Positions 11,656-40,440 of a DNA stretch of 64,000 nucleotides are shown here, piece by piece. The DNA comes from Acidobacteriota bacterium. GTDB lineage: Bacteria; Acidobacteriota; UBA6911; RPQK01; JAJDTT01. Below the pieces are notes generated by a model. The model was not told the DNA's origin and ran no database searches. It saw nothing but the letters and a program-made list of their open reading frames with translations. Position 1 is the stretch's first letter. Every line of letters starts with the position of its first letter. Location of the stretch: the NCBI GenBank assembly GCA_965217775.1, contig CBDCJH010000002.1:2400001-2464000 (forward strand). Reading direction: 5' to 3'. The position numbers were made by a program, and so were the translations under genes.

Positions 11656-11838
11656 TCACGACTTCGTTTGGCGCGTGTAGCCTTCGAAGAGACCTTCCAG
11701 CCTGGCCATGCGATCCGTGAACGCAACTTCGAGCCGGGTGACGCGGTCTCCGACTCGGTCGATCCGCTTCATCATGAACAGGCCCAAAGTCACACTTATT
11801 CCTGCCAATCCAAGGATTCCAATCAGTTCTGGGCTCAT
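11656..11838 (-). CDS. Small membrane-anchored coiled-coil hypothetical protein (60 aa)
   Basis: MSPELIGILGLAGISVTLGLFMMKRIDRVGDRVTRLE...MARLEGLFEG; GGAGG RBS upstream. Confidence 0.6.
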   Translation of the reverse strand: MSPELIGILGLAGISVTLGLFMMKRIDRVGDRVTRLEVAFTDRMARLEGLFEGYTRQTKS

Positions 11839-11933
11839 AGGAGTAACCTCCATCGCAGAACAATGGCGGGACCTTGAGTATAACAAGGTCGTTTCGAGGA
11901 GCTGGATGTCTATTCCCAGTGACCGTAGCTCAA

Positions 11934-12044
11934 CAGTCCGTGGTGAAAGTCTCGCGAGCACCGAGACCGTTCCTGCGCCCGCCGGACAAGGCGCGATGAG
12001 GGAGCATACCGGGAGTATGTGACCGAGTCGCAACGCAGTCCGCC
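11934..12044. mobile_element. First part of a split MITE-like element
   Basis: Near-identical to the reverse complement of 40330-40440; begins with terminal repeat CAGTCCGTGGTGAAAGTC; preceded by TCAA (11930-11933). Confidence 0.9.
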
Positions 12045-12482
12045 TGACTGATTCTATAAATTCTGTAAACCATTCAACATAAACGAGTTACGAATTCTAC
12101 GGCGACGCTCTTCCCCCCATTCTTTCCACCTGAACGAAACGGATGCCCTTGGCCTTTCGTGGCCGTGAATGGACCGTGTCAGCCCCGGATCGCCATGCGC
12201 CCACGCCCCCGAGGCCTGACATTTTTGACGGCCACTTTCCTGCACTTTTGCATGGTCGGCAACAAGACCCCGATGTCGCACGATAATTCCCAGCGAACGT
12301 CCTAAATTTTTGGGGTTTATAGGGATGACGAGAGATCCCTGAAAACCTCTCCCGGTGGAACCCGACAGACACTCCTGCAACACCTCTAGAAGTTTCGTCG
12401 CTGACTTCCGAGTGAACAAGTGATCTATCACATGCGGAGTACTCGAGGGACCTATAGACTTGAATACCCCCTGAATGGACAG

Positions 12483-13451
12483 CTATTCCTGATACTCATA
12501 CTGGGGGTTTTCAACGCGTTCGAATTCGTTCGTCCTGAGATTGTAGCGTCGGCAGAAAGCCGTTGTGCGGATTGCCCCCTGCCGGTCCCGGTACTGGATC
12601 GCCCCAAGGAGGTACGCGGCAGATACACCCTGCGAAAGGAGGGCGAGATCGCGGCCATCGGTCGGTTCGGGTGTAAAGGCAATCCTGATGGTTCGACCGA
12701 CCCGAATTTCGTTAACCCGCGTCTTTTTCCACGGAGGGTCCATCACGGCCAGCTCCACATGGCGGGTGATCCTACAACACATGTAGGCGCAGAGTGGTTT
12801 GCCAGGAAGACCGCCGCTGTTGGCCACTTCAAAATAGCCTCCGCAGTTCCCCTGGAGCATGTTCTTGAGTTCGCTTGGAGCCAATATCTGGTCTTCTCGT
12901 GGGACCCATTTATGGGTAGTAATCTCGTCTCGACCGAGAACGATGTTCCTCAGTTCGAAGACGGGCCGGTGATCAGCCCTGAACCGCTCCGACTGAATCG
13001 AGAACAGTTGCGACTGAATCGCAAACAGTCGCTCGGAGACCTCGTGCTGGCGTTCCGAAAGGGTGTTGCGTTGCTTGGCGGCCTGCGCTTGCTCCCAAGT
13101 GAAATAGACCAGGGCCAGGGTTACGAGCACCAAGGCCACGGAGGGGAGGCTGCCGACGAGTTCCGTAAACCACTCATAACCCTTTGGATTAGAGGTCTGA
13201 TCTGGCTGGTCGCGATGATCCACTGCTACGCCAACGATAGAATTGTCAATTGGTTGCGCCGCAGATACGGTATCAGTCGAACCACGGCTCGAAGGCTCAA
13301 TAAGCTCGCGTACCCTCCCGTCCCGATTAGGGGCATTCTGTTTTTGCTTACTCTCTGGCCCGCCACTTGGACTTGGTGGATTTGAGGGCTCCTGGAATCC
13401 CAGGGAAAGCAGCACCAGGAAACACAGGGATGAGGCTGGATTGTGATTCAT
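12483..13451 (-). CDS. Hypothetical membrane protein (island cargo)
   Basis: GAGG RBS, hydrophobic N-terminus, second TM (VALVLVTLALVYF), coiled coil, globular C-terminus GAIQYRDRQG..TAFCRRY. Confidence 0.6.
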   Translation of the reverse strand: MNHNPASSLCFLVLLSLGFQEPSNPPSPSGGPESKQKQNAPNRDGRVRELIEPSSRGSTDTVSAAQPIDNSIVGVAVDHRDQPDQTSNPKGYEWFTELVGSLPSVALVLVTLALVYFTWEQAQAAKQRNTLSERQHEVSERLFAIQSQLFSIQSERFRADHRPVFELRNIVLGRDEITTHKWVPREDQILAPSELKNMLQGNCGGYFEVANSGGLPGKPLCAYMCCRITRHVELAVMDPPWKKTRVNEIRVGRTIRIAFTPEPTDGRDLALLSQGVSAAYLLGAIQYRDRQGAIRTTAFCRRYNLRTNEFERVENPQYEYQE

Positions 13452-13457
13452 TTCCTC

Positions 13458-13822
13458 TCACATTCCACCAGCCTTTTTAGGATGGTGGAAGTCGAGCACG
13501 TGGTCAAGCGTCAGGTGATCCTGGTCGCCAACCTTGAACCACTTTAGCAATTCGCACCTACCCGTGTTCTTCCTATGCGCCCGACCGCGGTTCTTCAAGA
13601 GGTCATTTCGGATCCTGTGCAGGTCTCCCCACAGCGATGCCTCCACACCGTGCGGCAAGGGGCTCTTTTCCCGGAGAACTCCTGTTTCTTCCGGTACTTC
13701 TCCCACGCACCGTCCACTCTGGCGATCCATCCGACGTAGGCCAACTGCACCATCCGGCCGTTGCACCCCAGTTCCGACGACCACGTAACGGGTGGATTCG
13801 GCATGGTGGAGCGTAGCTCCAT
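13458..13822 (-). pseudogene. Frameshifted hypothetical gene remnant
   Basis: Two overlapping frames (..QLAYVGWIARVDGAWEKYR.. and ..LWGDLHRIRNDLLKNRG..LLKWFKVGD..) read as one broken protein. Confidence 0.4.
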
Positions 13823-14008
13823 GGATAGCGGGGATGTAGCTGGCCGCCTCGCGGTTGCGCCACTGCCACCGGAGCGGCGATGACGCGCCGGGCCTTGAGG
13901 CCGTGGCTGTGCCCGTTGACGTCCGCAAGCCGGACCAACGGGCCGTCTGCCACGAAGTGCACCGCCGCCTCGATGCGTCGCTCAACCGACATCCCGTAGG
14001 GATATCTG

Positions 14009-14257
14009 GGACGGGAGCGACCCCCCACGGCGATGCGGCGCGTGTGAAAACAGCGCCTACCAAGATGCCGATCCGGGAGGCAAAAAGGAGGGGCGCTCCC
14101 ATCCACCTCCGCTTTCCCCCAACCGGCACCGCGGAGCCGAGAATATGTCTGTAACTGCATGAATGGAAAACAGATCGGGGAAAGCGTCTTTGTGAATCGA
14201 CGGGACCGCTTTTTGTGAATCCACCTGGCTGGTCCCATTCTCACTCCCGGATCGGCA
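14009..14257. repeat. Structured non-coding unit, copy 1
   Basis: Diverged direct repeat of 16363-16609. Inverted pairs at 14009-14026/14087-14104, 14066-14079/14244-14257 (perfect 14 bp) and 14110-14119/14177-14186. Confidence 0.85.
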
Positions 14258-14471
14258 CGAGACTCCTGTTTCGCACCCCCGAACGGCGGCCCCGAAAACC
14301 CAGGCTCCGGCTACGCGTAGCCCCGGTCGATCACGGCCTGGAAGGAGTGATCTTCTGCGGCCGGGTCCAACTCCTCGTCCAGACTGACTCGAAGCAGCGT
14401 CATCGTTCGGGCGCGTCACAGCGCCTCTTGCCTCCTAGAGAAACACCTAGGACGAGACCCGGCGTCTACAT

Positions 14472-14690
14472 TTGCGTGCCAAGCTGGACGCCGTGTTCTT
14501 CCATCTCTACGGCGTTACAGACCGTCAGGATGTCCGCTACGTCTATTCGACGTTTCCCATCGTGAAACACCAGGAAACAGGAGCTTATGGGTACTACAGT
14601 TCCCGCGATCTCTGTCTCGCCTGGATGAACGTGCTGGCGGCAGGCAAGCCCGGTGCGGAGATCAATTTGGGGTGGCAAGCAGAAATGTAA
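14472..14690 (+). pseudogene. C-terminal remnant of a type IIG (Eco57I-like) restriction-modification enzyme
   Basis: LRAKLDAVFFHLYGVTDRQDVRYVYSTFPIV resembles the C-terminal tail of such enzymes; the N-terminal bulk is absent. Confidence 0.6.
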
Positions 14691-14828
14691 CTATACGGTA
14701 GCTCCTACCAGGGATCATGAGTACACCGAGTCACGTCCAGCACCGAGATGACTTGCTTCCCACCGCAGTAGCGCCGAACCGTTCCGCGAAAACGTAGGGT
14801 AGTGCTTGAGGTCGATGAGGCTGGCCAC

Positions 14829-15977
14829 TCATTCTTCCAGCTCGTGGAACGCCTCCTTTACCACCGCCCTCCATGTTGTTTCGCGATGTTCTGTGGTGCA
14901 AGTGATCTTGAGTTGTGCGGGTTGCGGTGGGTGGACGTTGTCGGCCGTAATCTTCCCGTCGAGAACGATGTCCCCTGATGCGTGCGATCCAAGGTAGAGC
15001 AAACTGTCGATCCATTTCGTTTCATTGGGTTGGATCTTTTCGGTCCGGATCTTGACAAGGCAGCAATCCGGGAGTTTCTGGACGGTTATGTCGTCGTCAC
15101 CTTTCATGCGGAAACTCGAAAGGCTGAAAACGGGGAAAAGGTCTCTACGGGGTTCCGGTTTCTTTGGCCAGGAGTGCTCGTCGAAGAGGACAGCATAGGG
15201 TGATTGAACGGTGAGTTCTACGCGCACGTCCATGGCGACGACGGATCCAGAGTTGATGATAGCGAATTGCAGTGTGGTACAGAGATGTTTTGCCCAAACG
15301 TAGGCGGCTAGCTCCCGCAGGAAGTCGGTGTTTATGCGGCGGAACTGCAGCGTGGGGATAGGGGGACTGGGCTCCTTGTAATCGGGGATTGCTTCAGAGT
15401 CCCTTATGTCAAGACAGGTGCCGTGAATTGCTTGTGTGTCCCCGGTGAGGCGACGCTGCGTCGTGTCAGCGAACAGTAGCTCGAGATGCGGCGACGCTTG
15501 TGGGATGGGCGCGGCTCCCATGCGTGCGATCTCATCTGGTAGCGCAACCGCCGTGGAGCTGCCACGGCGCAGGTAGACGGTATTTTCAGAAAGCTTGCCG
15601 AACGACTTTATGATGAACCGGGGGCGGTCTTGGACCGGAATGTGGAGGACGCCGACATTTATTCCCTCTAGTCGTGTCGCCCTATAGGAGAAGGTGACTG
15701 GCTGGTTCGTCTTGCTGTTGACGAGTTGCTGGAGTTTGGCGTCCTCGAGGTGGCCGGTAATCCCGACTACCGTCGCGCGGCCGTTGGGGTTCTCTTTGAC
15801 GCCAATGAGGATGTAGGCATCTGCGTGACGCCAAGCGTTGGTGAACGCCAGGATATCCTTGATCAGTTCTCCCTTTTGCTCATTGGTGGCAAGGTCATAC
15901 TGCTGACTCTTGAAGTCCAATGTCGAGCCTTCATCCTCATAGAGCAGGCTTGTGAAGAAGCGGTCATCGTCACTCAT
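14829..15977 (-). CDS. Schlafen/AlbA_2-domain protein
   Basis: EGSTLDFK...IKDILAFTNA...YILIGVKE...VYLRRGSST; unassigned C-terminal domain. Confidence 0.85.
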   Translation of the reverse strand: MSDDDRFFTSLLYEDEGSTLDFKSQQYDLATNEQKGELIKDILAFTNAWRHADAYILIGVKENPNGRATVVGITGHLEDAKLQQLVNSKTNQPVTFSYRATRLEGINVGVLHIPVQDRPRFIIKSFGKLSENTVYLRRGSSTAVALPDEIARMGAAPIPQASPHLELLFADTTQRRLTGDTQAIHGTCLDIRDSEAIPDYKEPSPPIPTLQFRRINTDFLRELAAYVWAKHLCTTLQFAIINSGSVVAMDVRVELTVQSPYAVLFDEHSWPKKPEPRRDLFPVFSLSSFRMKGDDDITVQKLPDCCLVKIRTEKIQPNETKWIDSLLYLGSHASGDIVLDGKITADNVHPPQPAQLKITCTTEHRETTWRAVVKEAFHELEE

Positions 15978-16362
15978 AGGTTTCTCCAGAGTACGGCTCT
16001 TGACGCATTCTGTTGAGCTTGTGACGGGCGGGGGCAGCGGCCAAGTTGAAATACAACATAAGAGCCGCCGTGCTTCCCGTCAGCCGCCGCCAGCTCCCAT
16101 GCTGGTCCGTTTCGCCAGTTCAATCCAAGGATCTGGTGACGCCAGCGCCGTCTGTAGGATGTCTCAGAAAAGGAGCGTTTTACGAAAGGCTTTCCAGAGG
16201 CCCGGTCACGGGACGAAACCTCGGTCAAAACCGTCCTGTTTTGTTGTCTCACTACTCTGTGTATCATACTGCCGTCCTTGGCCGTTTCTCCGCCGCCCGG
16301 CTTCACTGTCCCCAGCGCCGTCTTCTTGGGCACCTTGATGGCCTTCCCGCCAGGGATTGATG

Positions 16363-16609
16363 GGACGGGAGCGACCCTCCCGGGCGATGTGGCGTGTGAA
16401 AACAACGCCGCCCGCCGATGCCGATCCGGGAGGCAAAAAGGGGGGGTCGCTCCCGTCCACCTCCGATTTCCCCGATAGGCACGGCGGACCCGAAAATATG
16501 GCCGTAACTGCATGAGCGAAAAAGAGATCGGGGAAATCGCGCGTGTAAGTCGACAGGTCCCTGCGGTGTAAGTTGCCCTTATTGTCTCACTTACGCTCCC
16601 CGATCGGCA
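16363..16609. repeat. Structured non-coding unit, copy 2 (just downstream of the integrase)
   Basis: Inverted pairs at 16363-16377/16444-16458 (perfect 15 bp), 16419-16432/16596-16609 and 16464-16476/16527-16539 (perfect 13 bp); GAAA-capped hairpin at 16391-16409. Confidence 0.85.
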
Positions 16610-16701
16610 CGGAACCCCACTTTTCATCGGTCAAAATCGATCTTCCGGAAGCTGGCTTGAACGCCATATCACGAAGCCTGTCGGGAGGACGACCCGGCGG
16701 A

Positions 16702-17922
16702 TCAACGGAGCCGACCGGACGCCGGTTGCCGACTCTCGCCAGCCAGATAGCTAGCCCATTCGTCCATGAGCCGGCGCCGCCGCTCGAACAGGTCCGTGCG
16801 CCGGTATGCGGCCTCGATCGGGTTGCGGACCTTGTGCGCCAAAGCCGCCTCCTCCACCTCGCGCGGATGATCCGTCTCCTCGGCCGCCCAGTCCCGGAAA
16901 CTCGACCGGAAGCCGTGCGGCACGGCTGCGATCTTCAACGTCCGGAGCAGACCCGCCATCGCCGTGCTCCCGAGTGGCTTTCCGTGCATGCTCGGAAAAA
17001 CGAGGGGGCCGCCACCGAGTGCCCGCGCCTGATCGAGGATCTCCAACGCACGGCGACTGAGCGGCACCCGGTGCTCCCGATTCCCCTTCGTGCGTCCGGC
17101 GGGGATGGTCCACACTCCCTCGTCCCGGCCGATCTCCGTCCACGCGGCCCCACGGACCTCGCTGGAGCGTGTCGCCGTCAGCACCAGGAACTCGAACGCC
17201 AGCTTCACCACCGGTCGCGCGTTCGACGTTCTCACCGTCCGGAGCGCGGACGCCACTTCGCCATGAGGCAACGCCCGCATGTGACGCACAACCTTCCCCT
17301 GCGCGCCGAGCACCGGACCGATCCGGTCGCACGGGTTGTCGGGCCGAAGATCCATCGCCACGGCCCATTCCAACACCGCGCGGATGCGCTGGCGCAGCTT
17401 CCGGGCCGTGGATGCCTTCTCGTGCCAGATCGGAGCGAGGATTCCGATCACGTCGGCGCTCGTCACCTCCGCAATCGGCATCTTCCCGATGTAAGGGAAG
17501 GCGTGGTGCTCCAGGCTCGCCAGCCAGAGCTGTGCATGCCGGGCGGAGCGCCAGCCCGGCCGCAACTGCTTCCAGACCGTCCGGGTGGCGTCCGCGAAGG
17601 TGGGCATCGACTCGGACCTCCGCTTCTCGGCCCGGGGGTCGCCTCCGTCGCGGGCCAGCTTCCGGTTGGCGAACGCCTTCTCACGCGCTTCTTTGAGCGA
17701 GACCAGGGGGAATCCGCCGAGCCCGAGCTCGGTTCGGCGGCCACGGATGGTGAGGCGCTGGATCCAGCCCCGGCTCCCTGTTAGCCTGACGTCGAGATAG
17801 AGGCCCTGGCCGTCGCAGTAGCGTCCGGCCTGGCTCACGTTGCGGACAAAGGCCGGTGTCAGGACATTGTGGGGATGCTGGCCACGGGGCTTGCGTTGTG
17901 GAGGTCGTTTCGAGAGTGTCAT
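16702..17922 (-). CDS. P4-type tyrosine integrase with arm-binding domain
   Basis: Arm domain GRYCDGQGLYL...LGLGGFPLVSLKEAR; catalytic TRSSE(R), TK, HGFR, ALAH, AAY all present. Confidence 0.95.
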   Translation of the reverse strand: MTLSKRPPQRKPRGQHPHNVLTPAFVRNVSQAGRYCDGQGLYLDVRLTGSRGWIQRLTIRGRRTELGLGGFPLVSLKEAREKAFANRKLARDGGDPRAEKRRSESMPTFADATRTVWKQLRPGWRSARHAQLWLASLEHHAFPYIGKMPIAEVTSADVIGILAPIWHEKASTARKLRQRIRAVLEWAVAMDLRPDNPCDRIGPVLGAQGKVVRHMRALPHGEVASALRTVRTSNARPVVKLAFEFLVLTATRSSEVRGAAWTEIGRDEGVWTIPAGRTKGNREHRVPLSRRALEILDQARALGGGPLVFPSMHGKPLGSTAMAGLLRTLKIAAVPHGFRSSFRDWAAEETDHPREVEEAALAHKVRNPIEAAYRRTDLFERRRRLMDEWASYLAGESRQPASGRLR

Positions 17923-18086
17923 ACCTACCACTATACCCCCCAACCAAATGCGGGATGCAAGGGGATGAAGCGGAACGGTATCGGACAACGACGGACGTCA
18001 GATCTCCTGATAAATCAATGAAAATGAGGTACTTATGTACATTGCTGGACATATCTGGACGATATGTCTGTCTCTCACAACGCATC

Positions 18087-18138
18087 CCGCCGGGATGCAG
18101 GGACGGTCGAATGCCGTGACGACTTTTGCCACGGGCTG
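18087..18138. mobile_element. Second part of the split MITE-like element
   Basis: Matches the reverse complement of 40283-40334; ends GACTTTTGCCACGGGCTG and is followed by TCAA (18139-18142). Confidence 0.9.
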
Positions 18139-18175
18139 TCAAGCCCAGACACCTCGCACCCCGTGGCCGTCAATC

Positions 18176-20548
18176 TCACTCCGACTCGGCCACCGCGTCG
18201 TGCAACCGCTCCAATTCGGCCGCGCAGACTTCCGTCCACTCCCCGCAGGGCGCCGAACGGATCAACGAACGCATCCAGGAGACGTCCTGGCCATACTCGT
18301 TGAGCCGGCGCCCGTAGCTCGCCCGGTTCTTGGTGCAGACCAGGGTGTAGGGACTGCCCTTTCGTTGGGTCACGTGGGACATGTCGAGCCGGTGGCCGTC
18401 AATGATCCGGTGCAGGTGCTTGCGCAGATCCTTCCGTAGCTTGAAACGCTCCGTTTTGGCGACTGGGTTCCTGCAGAAGGCCCGAAGCTTGGCGCAGTGC
18501 CGGCAATCGCAGTCGATCTCGGTCGAGATCGTCCAATCCCGAGGCACCTCGGGAGCTGTCGCGCTACGGCGCAGCAGGAAACCCACGGCATGGCGCCACA
18601 ACAGGGCGTAGGCGCCGGTCCCTGGGATGCCTTCCTGGCCGCGGAGTTGGTCCAGAGCCGCCGGAACCATCCGGTCCGGTGTGATGAGCTGCGGGTGATC
18701 AGCGATGGCGACAGCAGCCGTCTTGGCGTCTTCCGCCAATCCGAATCGCGAAGCCAGCCCGAAGAGGTCACGGATCGCTCCATGGTCGATGGATTTCCGC
18801 TCCCGTTCCCGATATTCCCACGTCTCCTCATCGTCCCACGCTTCCTCTGCGGCCCACGTTGTCCGGTCAGCCTCCACCGGCCGCTTCACCCGCTTCAAGA
18901 CGGCGGGCCAGTCGGCAAGAGCCTGCCTGGCCCCGCCCCGGAGGGCGCCGCTCCAAGCGGGACCCGCCGTCTCACCGACGCGCAGCAGCAGCAGCAGCGT
19001 GTCGCCGGTCCGGTATGGCAACTGAGCTTTGACGAATTCGACCAGGAACTTCCCGCCGGCGTCCGGACCGATCCCAACCAACGCCGCCAGCAGATCATCG
19101 TTTTCGCTGCCGTCATACCTGTGAACCACGACCTGCCGAAGGAAGTGGGCGGTGCGGGTTTCGTCTCCGATCGCAGCCAGCAGGCGAAGCATCCCGGAGC
19201 GGGCCTCTGCGTCGGAGACGTACCGTTCAGTGGGCCAGATTTCGGTCAACCGGCCCACCAGATCGCCGATGCTTTGGCCGGGAACCAAGTCCTCACGTTG
19301 GAATTGCTCGGCCACCCAAGCCACGCCGCGGTCGATGCCGCCACTACTGATGACGTCGAGCGTCTTCGGCCGTGGCCAGATCACGAAGGCAGCACGGCGA
19401 TAGAACTGCTCGATGGTCATGCCCGCGTTGCCCGTCGCTTCATGCACCCTCTGGTCGTCCGGTTCGGCGGCGTCGAGCGCTCCTTCCGGCAAAAGTTCTT
19501 GCCCCAGCAATGGGATCTTTCCAAAAGGCGGGCGGCCTCCGTCCCGGTCCATCCAGCCGTCGAGCGATCGCGTACGGTCGAGCAACTCGTCCATCTCCAG
19601 GGGATCGGAGTCCATCTCATCCCAGTCCTCTTCAACGTAGTAAAGAACGGGGATGCCTGCTTCCCTGACGTGTACGATCGCCAAGTACAATTCCCACTCG
19701 GCCAGATCTGCCGCCGCCTTCAGAACTCGCGCCACGGACGCGTCGGCATTCTTCAAGGCGTCGAAAGAGAGTCCGCTCTCGCTGTAGTCATGCTCCATCA
19801 GCCAGACGTACTTGTCGGGCGGGTGATCGCCGTCACGCCAGTCGATGAGAAAATCGGCGACACTCTCGACCCGATCCGAATAGTCGGGAGCGAGCCGGGG
19901 CGTTTCGGTGTCTCCGGGGCGAAGACAGACGTTGAAAACCAGCGACAGACGATGGCCGTGACGGATCGGCAGTGTTTCGTGGGAACAGTCGGCGTAGAAC
20001 GCAGCGAACGCCAGTTCGGAGGGCTCGTCCGCGTTCATGTCGAGAGTCATCTCTCGACCGCGATGGCGGACGATCAACTCGCCGCCGGCGCCGGCGGTCG
20101 GCAACGAAATCGAAAGTGTGGCTATCATGCCGTCGGCTTTCGCGGTGTCGCGGTGGGACGAAAAGAATCCTCCCGATGGGTAGACGAGCAATTTGTAGAG
20201 TTGCGCGTCCAACCGCTCGAGGGGGCAACCGAGACCGGTCGCGGTGGCGGCGAGAATCTTGGAAAACGTATCCGGCCACGCGCGGCCGCCCAGGCAAACC
20301 TGCGCCGCGTCGATCTGCCGGCAGTCGCGGACGGAGGTATCGACCAAGGTCTCCGTTCCCTTGCCGTAGGGAGCACGTTCGGCCACCTCCATCAATGCAC
20401 GAACCTGTGCGTCGGGAACCGGGAAAGAGAGCAACCCGACGCCGTCGACCTTCAGCACCGGCATTGGGATCAGCAGACGGCCATACGCGAAAAAGTCCCC
20501 CGGGCGGTCAATGGACTGCAGCAGCTTCTCGAGTGAGTTGTCGTCCAT
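18176..20548 (-). CDS. 2OG-Fe(II) oxygenase domain protein with long helical C-terminus
   Basis: YKLLVY..GGFF..HRD (HxD), distal H in SHE, RLSLVFN; C-terminal CDCRHC. Confidence 0.85.
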   Translation of the reverse strand: MDDNSLEKLLQSIDRPGDFFAYGRLLIPMPVLKVDGVGLLSFPVPDAQVRALMEVAERAPYGKGTETLVDTSVRDCRQIDAAQVCLGGRAWPDTFSKILAATATGLGCPLERLDAQLYKLLVYPSGGFFSSHRDTAKADGMIATLSISLPTAGAGGELIVRHRGREMTLDMNADEPSELAFAAFYADCSHETLPIRHGHRLSLVFNVCLRPGDTETPRLAPDYSDRVESVADFLIDWRDGDHPPDKYVWLMEHDYSESGLSFDALKNADASVARVLKAAADLAEWELYLAIVHVREAGIPVLYYVEEDWDEMDSDPLEMDELLDRTRSLDGWMDRDGGRPPFGKIPLLGQELLPEGALDAAEPDDQRVHEATGNAGMTIEQFYRRAAFVIWPRPKTLDVISSGGIDRGVAWVAEQFQREDLVPGQSIGDLVGRLTEIWPTERYVSDAEARSGMLRLLAAIGDETRTAHFLRQVVVHRYDGSENDDLLAALVGIGPDAGGKFLVEFVKAQLPYRTGDTLLLLLRVGETAGPAWSGALRGGARQALADWPAVLKRVKRPVEADRTTWAAEEAWDDEETWEYRERERKSIDHGAIRDLFGLASRFGLAEDAKTAAVAIADHPQLITPDRMVPAALDQLRGQEGIPGTGAYALLWRHAVGFLLRRSATAPEVPRDWTISTEIDCDCRHCAKLRAFCRNPVAKTERFKLRKDLRKHLHRIIDGHRLDMSHVTQRKGSPYTLVCTKNRASYGRRLNEYGQDVSWMRSLIRSAPCGEWTEVCAAELERLHDAVAESE

Positions 20549-40282: not shown

Positions 40283-40440
40283 CAGCCCGTGGCAAAAGTC
40301 GTCACGGCATTCGACCGTCCCTGCATCCCGGCGGACTGCGTTGCGATTCGGGCACATACTCCCGGTATGCACCCGAATCGCGCCTTGTCCGGCGGGCGCA
40401 GGAACGGTCTCGGTGCTCGCGCGACTTTCACCACGGACTG
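40283..40440. mobile_element. Intact 158-bp MITE-like element
   Basis: Imperfect terminal inverted repeats CAGCCCGTGGCAAAAGTCG / CGACTTTCACCACGGACTG; ATAT on both flanks (40279-40282, 40441-40444); internal hairpin 40343-40381. Confidence 0.9.

Follow-up and report, generated by a model that had tools for sequence, protein, structure and literature searches.

We analysed a 64,000-nucleotide stretch of an Acidobacteriota genome (the window hereafter; G000:C2:2400001-2464000, from the G000 assembly of 6.43 Mb in two contigs with 62% G+C), in which an island encoding a tyrosine integrase lies within a copy of a 158-bp miniature inverted-repeat transposable element (MITE). An intact copy of the same repeat, with the unoccupied canonical core CAGTCCGCCGGGATGC (40323-40338, minus strand), lies at 40283-40440 on the minus strand, 22 kb from the split copy. 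When this intact copy was compared by BLAST with the junction regions, its positions 1-111 matched 11934-12044 with 94.6% identity and its positions 95-158 matched 18075-18138 with 95.3% identity, confirming the proposal of an earlier note on this DNA that 11934-12044 and 18087-18138 are the two parts of the element at 40283-40440. The two matches overlap by 17 nt, forming a quasi-repeat (TCGCAACGCAGTCCGCC at 12028-12044 and TCACAACGCATCCCGCC at 18075-18091), and the note was exact in describing GT and TC versions of it, of which the GT version is present in the intact copy. The tetramer TCAA stands outside both outer ends of the split MITE (11930-11933 and 18139-18142), which had been taken as the mark of one insertion. 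That view holds: at the orthologous empty site in genome G003, TCAA occurs once and the repeat is absent, genome G001 is likewise without the repeat, and metagenome contigs join 11929 to 18139 with 4 nt shared, as for a target-site duplication.

The segment between the MITE halves measures 6.03 kb (12045-18091) and ends, as had been stated, in an intact tyrosine integrase gene (16702-17922, minus strand). To its left, MITE positions 1-111 (11934-12044, plus strand), the left part (B) of the bacterial attachment site attB, run up to CCGCC, and the overlap of the left junction, attL, reads CCGCCTG (12040-12046, plus), one change from the CCGCCGG of the MITE and of the sister islands (compared with loci L025, L140 and L142). 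To its right, the attR overlap CCGCCGG (18087-18093, plus), read directly from the sequence, leads into MITE positions 112-158, the right part of attB (B', 18092-18138, plus), which belongs to the 95.3% match. This is an attL/attR architecture, in that both junctions share the core and joining them restores the target. Just inside the junctions are the integrase-distal or P' arm (12045-12265, plus), which is 79-90% identical to the matching ends of loci L140-L144 and is also matched by the same ends of the islands of genome G004, and the integrase-proximal or P arm (17923-18074, plus). The latter has two direct CTGGAC repeats (18045-18050 and 18055-18060), putative arm-type sites, and the motif ATCGTCCAG-N4-GTCCAG is conserved across all the integrase-family members displayed. 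ARAGORN found no transfer RNA (tRNA) or transfer-messenger RNA (tmRNA) gene in the 64-kb window, so the note's remark that none stands at the junctions is correct; Rfam gave no match over the whole window at gathering thresholds and none at E values up to 1 over 11800-18300.

The repeat is non-coding, its ends (CAGTCCGTGG.. and ..CCACGGGCTG) are inverted repeats, and the predicted fold of the whole element is one long hairpin (dG -60 kcal/mol, z -9.2; 0 of 200 shuffled sequences fold as well). G000 has 277 BLAST matches to it, 212 of them full length (5 of them on the 144-kb contig C1), and its copies are flanked by the 4-bp duplications TCAA, GTAA, TTAA and CTAG. Terminal inverted repeats, dispersed copies with target-site duplications and insertion polymorphism together identify it as a MITE.

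The open reading frame (ORF) of the integrase extends to 17988, with the probable start at M23 (17922), giving a protein of 406 aa that was compared with Pfam, PDB and NCBIfam. It has an N-terminal Arm-DNA-bind_3/DUF4102 domain (PF13356, E 2.2e-17, residues 43-124) with matches to the N-terminal domains of CP4-like integrases in PDB (3jtz, E 4e-7; 3ju0, E 3e-6), a central SAM-like core-binding domain (PF22022, Phage_int_M, E 1.6e-24) and a C-terminal catalytic domain (PF00589, Phage_integrase, E 4.8e-14); PDB entry 2khv also matches the protein (E 1.2e-13). The segments TATRSSE, TKGN, HGFRSSFR, LAH and AAYRR, readable in the translation, are candidates for the catalytic R..K..HxxR..H/W..Y residues. 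Judged by its domain content, the recombinase is P4/CP4-like, with a score against NCBIfam PRK09692 of 143.3 bits, below the cut-off of 434. Over the whole of G000, tblastn returned one full integrase gene and two fragments (C2:3927019-3927420 and C2:807486-807680), neither fragment being near a MITE.

Occupied and empty sites in related genomes

A search of 41 related genomes recovered the integrase family in 19, including all eight sister species of the genus, and frequently in multiple copies, with 25 matches in G004. The close-homologue set, taken with 20 kb around each copy at about 80% identity or more from the genus and from G023, comprises 17 integrase genes: the window's own and those in L021-L036 (L031 and L034 overlap). 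Of these genes, eight lie next to a MITE half whose break falls at positions 111-120 or 102-104, namely those of the window island, L022, L023, L025, L026 and L027 in G004, and L021 and L036 in G005. Both MITE halves are present within 20 kb for six of the eight, enclosing 6.0, 8.7, 9.8, 10.8, 11.8 and 16.0 kb; in L036, 6.1 kb is enclosed around a truncated integrase. At five more split-MITE junctions (L140-L144) the conserved arm of the island abuts a MITE half, again with the break in the same place, and there is no integrase gene in the stretch fetched except for a 45-residue remnant in L142. Of these, L142 in G007 is a 3.5-kb remnant that keeps both MITE halves and both arms, and the others are arm-to-half junctions in G002 (L140), G003 (L143) and G005 (L141 and L144). 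The total is 13 split-MITE loci in six of the nine genomes of the genus (G000, G002, G003, G004, G005 and G007), or 12 if L022 and L023 are merged; two half-copy pairs in G004 (4556130/4560773 and 5258829/5273306) were left out of this count, as they may be short forms of the MITE.

The case for merging is that L022 (G004:C1:561072-581071) and L023 (67135-87134) have flanks 97-99% identical over 700 bp on each side. Their islands, of 8.7 and 16.0 kb, occupy MITE halves of different subtypes; the pair would have arisen either by duplication of a segment and later turnover of its island, or by separate insertion into two paralogous copies of the MITE. The flanks of the remaining MITE-linked integrase loci are unrelated to each other.

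The earlier note had proposed collecting the flanks of close integrase homologues, and the outcome favours its view of the target: eight of 17 lie at a MITE with one and the same break position, a further five arm-to-MITE junctions were added, and none of the homologues lies at a tRNA gene. No tRNA was found at the 19 homologue loci scanned, and neither tRNA nor tmRNA at 18 of them, the exception being L009, a relative of 46% identity that lies 158 bp downstream of a tmRNA gene. These data bear on the possibility that the MITE is a chance secondary site of an integrase that normally targets tRNA genes or any CCGCC site. Nine of the 17 close homologues use a core outside the MITE, and the heptamer CCGCCGG is common, with 6439 occurrences in G000, of which 430 are within MITE hits; both facts would suit a chance hit. 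Longer strings give a different picture, since 194 of 197 occurrences of the 12-mer GTCCGCCGGGAT and 113 of 116 of the 12-mer CAGTCCGCCGGG in G000 fall inside the MITE. Because the 12-mer is almost confined to the MITE while bare CCGCCGG is abundant, the junctions are far from a chance match. With 13 split-MITE loci broken at one position across six genomes, and five islands in G004 among only about 15 full-length MITE copies there, we consider a chance site extremely improbable.

Unoccupied canonical sites were counted with a 29-nt pattern allowing up to three mismatches, for which a reversed-pattern control gave 0 in every genome. The counts were 191 in G000, 84 in G007, 52 in G006, 40 in G005, 20 in G008, 18 in G002, 17 in G003, 7 in G001 and 6 in G004, one of the last being an island junction. 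G004, with its ~15 full-length copies by BLAST, thus has five empty canonical sites against five occupied ones. The prediction that a repeat as target would offer the island many landing pads is borne out by the 212 full-length copies and 191 unoccupied sites in G000, the intact one 22 kb away among them; it is through the multiplication of the MITE that the island lineage has so many equivalent landing sites. Among the 11 intact G004 copies that were fetched (L148-L158), five have GGATG changed to GCCTG to the right of the overlap, a variant seen in none of the island-bearing copies; the GCCTG form may be a target escaping the integrase, the numbers being too small for a test.

The conserved arms of these islands enclose differing cargo. 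L027 carries a complete type I restriction-modification system and an AAA_13 protein, L026 a type ISP restriction-modification enzyme together with a TPR-repeat Ser/Thr kinase, and L023 a methyltransferase and two leucine-rich repeat (LRR) proteins, of 1100 and 1230 aa. A PD-(D/E)XK nuclease is found in L022, and DUF4357 and T5orf172 proteins in L025. This is as expected of one integration module with exchangeable genes. In the window island the cargo consists of a 322-aa ORF without a family match in library scans (12483-13451, minus) and a 382-aa protein with an N-terminal Schlafen AlbA_2 domain (14829-15977, minus; E 5e-14), which also matches the PADLOC candidate defence family PDC-S50 (E 2.5e-15). 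A 72-aa ORF at 14472-14690, considered as the C-terminus of a type IIG/ISP methylase for its apparent likeness to one, was dropped: BLASTP against the type ISP protein of L026 found no similarity and NCBIfam no match.

Other variants and occupants of the MITE were also recorded. A short form of about 100 bp, in which positions 53-106 are absent, occurs in G000 at C2:985933-986027, 3579131-3579227, 4889634-4889730 and 5007959-5008055; the loss corresponds to a deletion between two direct CCGCCGG repeats, one being the att overlap. Solitary right halves of about 56 bp (G000 C2:1252802, 3843155, 4331667, 5738896, 5917972 and 5929142) were entertained as island scars and rejected, for they start at 102-107 with CAGTCCG, the heptamer of the MITE terminus, abut TA-rich sequence and have no adjoining island arm; going by these ends, they are a short MITE form and not junctions. 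Finally, a 1.52-kb insertion sequence (IS) of the IS110 family (DEDD_Tnp_IS110 and Transposase_20 domains) has all four of its genomic copies within MITE copies (G000 C2:1656568-1658241, 3134809-3136482, 5760147-5761892 and 6039542-6041287). The copies are 99.7-99.9% identical and lie between MITE positions 64 and 71 in one orientation relative to the MITE; since all four share this one position, the MITE serves another, unrelated recombinase as a specific target as well.

Crossover, orientation and origin of the specificity

The forward-oriented islands L023, L026 and L027 have the exact 12-mer CAGTCCGCCGGG at both junctions. In the reverse island L025, the block of identity between attP and attB is exactly 7 bp, CCGGCGG, with a mismatch on each side, which bounds the exchange region to CCGCCGG at MITE positions 107-113. 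We infer that strand exchange, with its exact cleavage points, falls within this heptamer of the attB core GCAGT-CCGCCGG-GATGC (positions 102-118), a 7-bp overlap being usual for tyrosine integrases. The earlier placement of the exchange at CCGCC was thus right as to position and is refined here to the 7-bp CCGCCGG, with the addition that islands are found in both orientations. The same junctions speak to entry by RecA-mediated homologous recombination of an island carrying a MITE-like stretch. In the window, attP and attB do share up to 17 nt at 82% similarity; however, the identical block spans only 5-12 bp across loci, exactly 7 bp in L025, a length too small for homologous recombination to be efficient. 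The break, moreover, falls at the same base across loci, and the integrase gene lies ~90-150 bp from the junction every time, so that we regard this route as very improbable.

CCGCCGG is its own reverse complement save for the central base. Read in the orientation of the integrase, the reconstructed attP is GGAATCAGT-CCGCCGG-GCTGTAG in the forward islands and GGGATCAGT-CCGGCGG-GCTGCAT in L025; the two share one architecture, and within the overlap only the central base differs. The forward orientation is found in L021, L022, L023, L026, L027, L036, L143 and L144, and the reverse in the window island, L025, L140, L141 and L142. By analogy with the overlap asymmetry of other tyrosine recombinases, we infer that the central base of the overlap sets the orientation of insertion, in keeping with the two orientations observed: an attP with C at the centre would pair with one MITE strand and an attP with G with the other. 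The window island is of the reverse type, with CCGCCGG as the attR overlap and CCGCCTG as that of attL, where sister reverse islands have CCGCCGG or close variants. As the attL overlap of the window carries this point change, the circle junction predicted in the earlier note may not be the ancestral attP.

The integrase tree, a quick LG+G4 reconstruction of 64 rows rooted on the distant L008-L010, which do not form one side of any branch, places the seven full-length MITE-linked integrases in one clade (support of 86 in the SH-like approximate likelihood ratio test, SH-aLRT). This clade is sister to an 11-row clade whose members use the core CTTCCCGNAGG (98), with joint support of 98, and orientation changes at least twice inside the MITE-linked clade. 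In the sister clade and in most relatives of 75-87% identity, the junction reads ..CCTTCCCGCAGGG up to the break and CT.. after it, beside the same conserved arm; in a further group it reads ..GTTCCCGCGGGG and then CT... Several of these junctions in Acidobacteriota genomes lie within a repeated structured module that we call E2. For L006, L030 and L034, the match is between the proximal flank and the gene-start side of E2; in L032, L034 and L035 the core recurs on the same strand and is there followed by the body of E2; and the E2 copies at G000 C2:801401 and L030:8996 run directly into sequence resembling the distal arm. The proposal that attB is a mobile, multicopy repeat is sustained for the MITE as target, but it does not cover the nine of 17 close homologues that use the related core CTTCCCGNAGG, several of them inside this second repeated element. 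The core of E2 is CCGCCAGGGAT and that of the MITE CCGCC-GGGAT. Because the two are similar, a target shift between two short cores is the simplest history, in which the MITE specificity would be derived within a P4/CP4-like family whose other close members use a CTTCCCGNAGG-related core.

E2 measures 200-300 bp and lies directly downstream of the integrase gene in the island family, as well as ahead of the start codons of various genes. The window island has a first copy at 16342-16640 (minus strand; its plus strand begins CCTTCCCGCCAGGGA), directly downstream of its integrase gene, and a second at 13992-14283 (minus), which is 82.6% identical to 16345-16536 and matches other loci in the genome. 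Further copies are found in G000 at C2:801401, 814175, 816229, 1551122, 2752043 and 4835264 and at many sister loci. The module has a 19-nt perfect inverted repeat (GGACGGGAGCGACCCCCCC / GGGGGGGTCGCTCCCGTCC) around two hairpins, and in its terminal hairpin lies the core that the integrases of the sister clade use. Across 27 aligned copies, 8 of 30 predicted pairs are changed on both sides, and there is no Rfam match; E2 may act as RNA, in the form of a structured leader, or as DNA, in the form of a recombination site. Remains of islands are clustered at G000 C2:801401-817000, with the integrase fragment at 807486-807680, three to four E2 modules and, at 801678, the body of an E2 joined to distal-arm-like sequence.

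A wider collection was also considered. Its best 80 loci include the same G004 and G005 sites, and the other 74 are without the MITE; these come from metagenome-assembled genomes titled Acidobacteriota, Longimicrobiales, Ca. Palauibacter, Ca. Versatilivorator, Vicinamibacterales and Gammaproteobacteria. The integrases of this collection (L051-L130) are 75-92% identical to that of the window, often with several copies per genome. Such similarity across phyla points to recent transfer and to a family that has proliferated much as transposons do. Another integrase group, likewise multicopy (L007 and L037-L050, in G001, G004, G005, G007 and G008) is ~60-68% identical to the window's. Its junction is G-rich, with the break directly after ..GGGGGGTAGGGGGGACGGCAACA, and in four loci reads ..TCCCTGCGGATACA.. 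or a close variant, with neither a MITE nor a tRNA gene nearby.

History of the locus and competing explanations

The locus was followed in public metagenome runs, X5-X7 from one study and X9 from another, for which contigs only were available, with crude depths, and which may include the source sample of the assembly. In all four runs a contig joins 11929 directly to 18139 with four shared letters; the X9 record, of 432 nt, comprises 343 nt of the left flank with 3 mismatches and 89 nt of the right flank. This allele without MITE or island has depths of 38, 30.5, 27.2 and 53.6 in the four runs, against 13.7, 21.1, 10.2 and 2.7 for contigs specific to the island. Even with depths of this kind, the window locus is polymorphic in the population. 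Contig skips of 6.0-6.1 kb proved to be simply other intact MITE copies.

The contigs break at the repeat, and none bridges either junction with at least 31 nt on both sides. Together with the high copy number of the MITE and an estimated contamination of 7.47%, this gives some room to the idea that the island was misjoined into a MITE during assembly of the metagenome. A misjoin at a repeat would, however, leave whole repeats and not complementary halves sharing a core of 7-17 nt, and the same architecture occurs in five other assemblies, four of them single-contig. The contigs of unique sequence, for their part, end at 18085-18093, where the repeat starts. A misassembly is thus a very unlikely source of the structure.

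In G008, an intact MITE occupies the TCAA of the window locus (L132, G008:C329:4200-5100), inverted relative to G000. It is best read as an independent insertion, with TCAA as a hot spot, because the conspecific population is mostly without a MITE there. At the locus of L026, G001, G005 and G008 are without the MITE. About 157 extra bases found there in G001 and G008 were tried as an intermediate MITE allele and turned out to be an unrelated insert with no MITE. L022, L026 and L027 each lie in MITE halves with private variants of their own, which recur in the intact G004 copies L150, L153 and L148, respectively; as these variants differ, the three islands had different MITE copies as their targets. 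The order of events, MITE first and island second, hence rests on the nested anatomy and these private variants rather than on any intermediate allele.

Composite transposition is the rival to be taken most seriously. On this view, one or a few integrations were followed by movement of the whole unit of MITE half, island and MITE half to TA-rich sites, driven by a MITE transposase acting in trans. The outer ends do retain intact terminal repeats and the 4-bp duplication, both of the loci tested have MITE-less comparators, and no MITE-only allele in the same orientation was seen at the loci compared, all of which speaks for it. Against it, L022, L026 and L027 match different intact MITE copies of G004, and the occurrence of both orientations in one integrase sub-clade requires separate integrations. 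No transposase with MITE ends turned up, although no search was aimed at one, and the only IS inside MITE copies is the unrelated IS110-family element. We judge it unlikely that composite transposition accounts for the pattern; it may have added to the spread of the islands, but could not replace repeated targeting by the integrase.

The explanation that we favour, at a probability of roughly 85%, is that the island entered the MITE through site-specific recombination by its integrase, with the MITE as the attachment site. On this explanation, 12045-18091 would be an integrative island that entered by recombination inside the 158-bp hairpin, and the specificity for the MITE would have arisen by a shift from a related core within the P4/CP4-like family. 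Several observations weigh against it. The 13 loci come from kin genomes and are not statistically independent, more than half of the closest integrases (nine of 17) do not use the MITE, and G000 has only one island for its 191 empty sites. The SH-aLRT support for the MITE-linked clade is below the 95 mark. At the two orthologous loci that can be compared, those of the window and L026, relatives or the population show a site without a MITE, and the sole MITE-only allele, that of G008 at the window locus, is inverted relative to G000. Neither a back-joint of the circle (~18090 to 12045), among the rows listed, nor a restored MITE at the window locus was found in the contigs, which are short and break at the repeat. 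There is no excisionase-like family among the scanned ORFs of the window, and the mismatch between the attL and attR overlaps, if it arose after integration, should impair excision. The window element itself may therefore be fixed in place.

A broader synthesis, which we offer tentatively and at somewhat less than even odds, joins these strands. The MITE hairpin would be a safe harbour shared by nested mobile elements, to which an integrase lineage that normally inserts into E2, as a structured leader element borne by sister islands, was re-targeted through the near-identical core CCGCC[A]GGGAT, its orientation flipping with one central base of the quasi-palindromic 7-bp overlap. The harbour would be shared with the unrelated but equally specific IS110-family element, the proliferation of the MITE would set the number of islands with their cargo of defence systems and eukaryote-like proteins, and the intact transposon ends may add transposase-driven movement.

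Significance and comparison with known systems

A single safe target is what makes site-specific integrases valuable, both in nature and to engineers. The present island is an apparent natural case in which the target of an integrase is itself a self-amplifying repeat, with ~5 to ~190 landing sites per genome within one genus. It offers an example of integrase specificity shifting between short related cores, and a natural pair of attP sites, one base apart within the 7-bp overlap, that should insert in opposite orientations. A selfish repeat could in this way control the load of accessory DNA in a genome, such as restriction systems and LRR proteins; if the integrase is active, the integrase and the MITE would make a ready-made multicopy landing-pad system. 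Full-text searches found no tyrosine-integrase island with a MITE as attB, most subscription journals being outside their coverage, so that absence is not proven. A repeated attB does have a precedent, in the prophage-like element phiRv1.

The closest relatives by design are the P4/CP4-57-type islands, with which the window island shares a three-domain integrase, an integrase gene beside one att junction, conserved arms at both ends and variable cargo, as well as a 46%-identical relative, L009, beside a tmRNA gene. It differs from them in that attB is a position in a non-coding, multicopy, mobile repeat and not in a tRNA or tmRNA gene, the P4-type hallmark of an attB at the 3' end of such a gene being absent from the window island; in addition, both orientations of insertion occur here, and the integrase stays below the PRK09692 cut-off. 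In loxP, FRT and the lambda att sites, an overlap of 6-8 bp lies between inverted binding sites, and its asymmetry fixes the orientation of the partners. Unlike in those systems, the asymmetry here comes down to one base pair at the centre, for which both alternatives are found in natural attP sites of one integrase clade.

The repeat REP13E12 of the phiRv1 system is of low copy number, unlike the 158-bp MITE with its ~200 copies. phiRv1 of Mycobacterium tuberculosis uses a serine recombinase and an attB located in REP13E12 (PMC9317374). The two systems are alike in having attB within a repeated chromosomal sequence, giving several sites per genome, and unlike in their enzymes, a serine recombinase there and a tyrosine integrase here. 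Elements of the IS110 family (ISPpu9, ISPpu10 and IS621 with its bridge RNA) are reported to target repetitive extragenic palindromic (REP) sequences (PMC12288879; bioRxiv 10.64898/2026.03.19.712850; PMC11208160). They share with the present case a multicopy palindromic repeat as a specific target; however, they are insertion sequences of 1.5 kb mobilized by an RNA-guided DEDD recombinase, whereas the element in the window is an island that bears cargo and att arms and encodes a heterobivalent tyrosine integrase.

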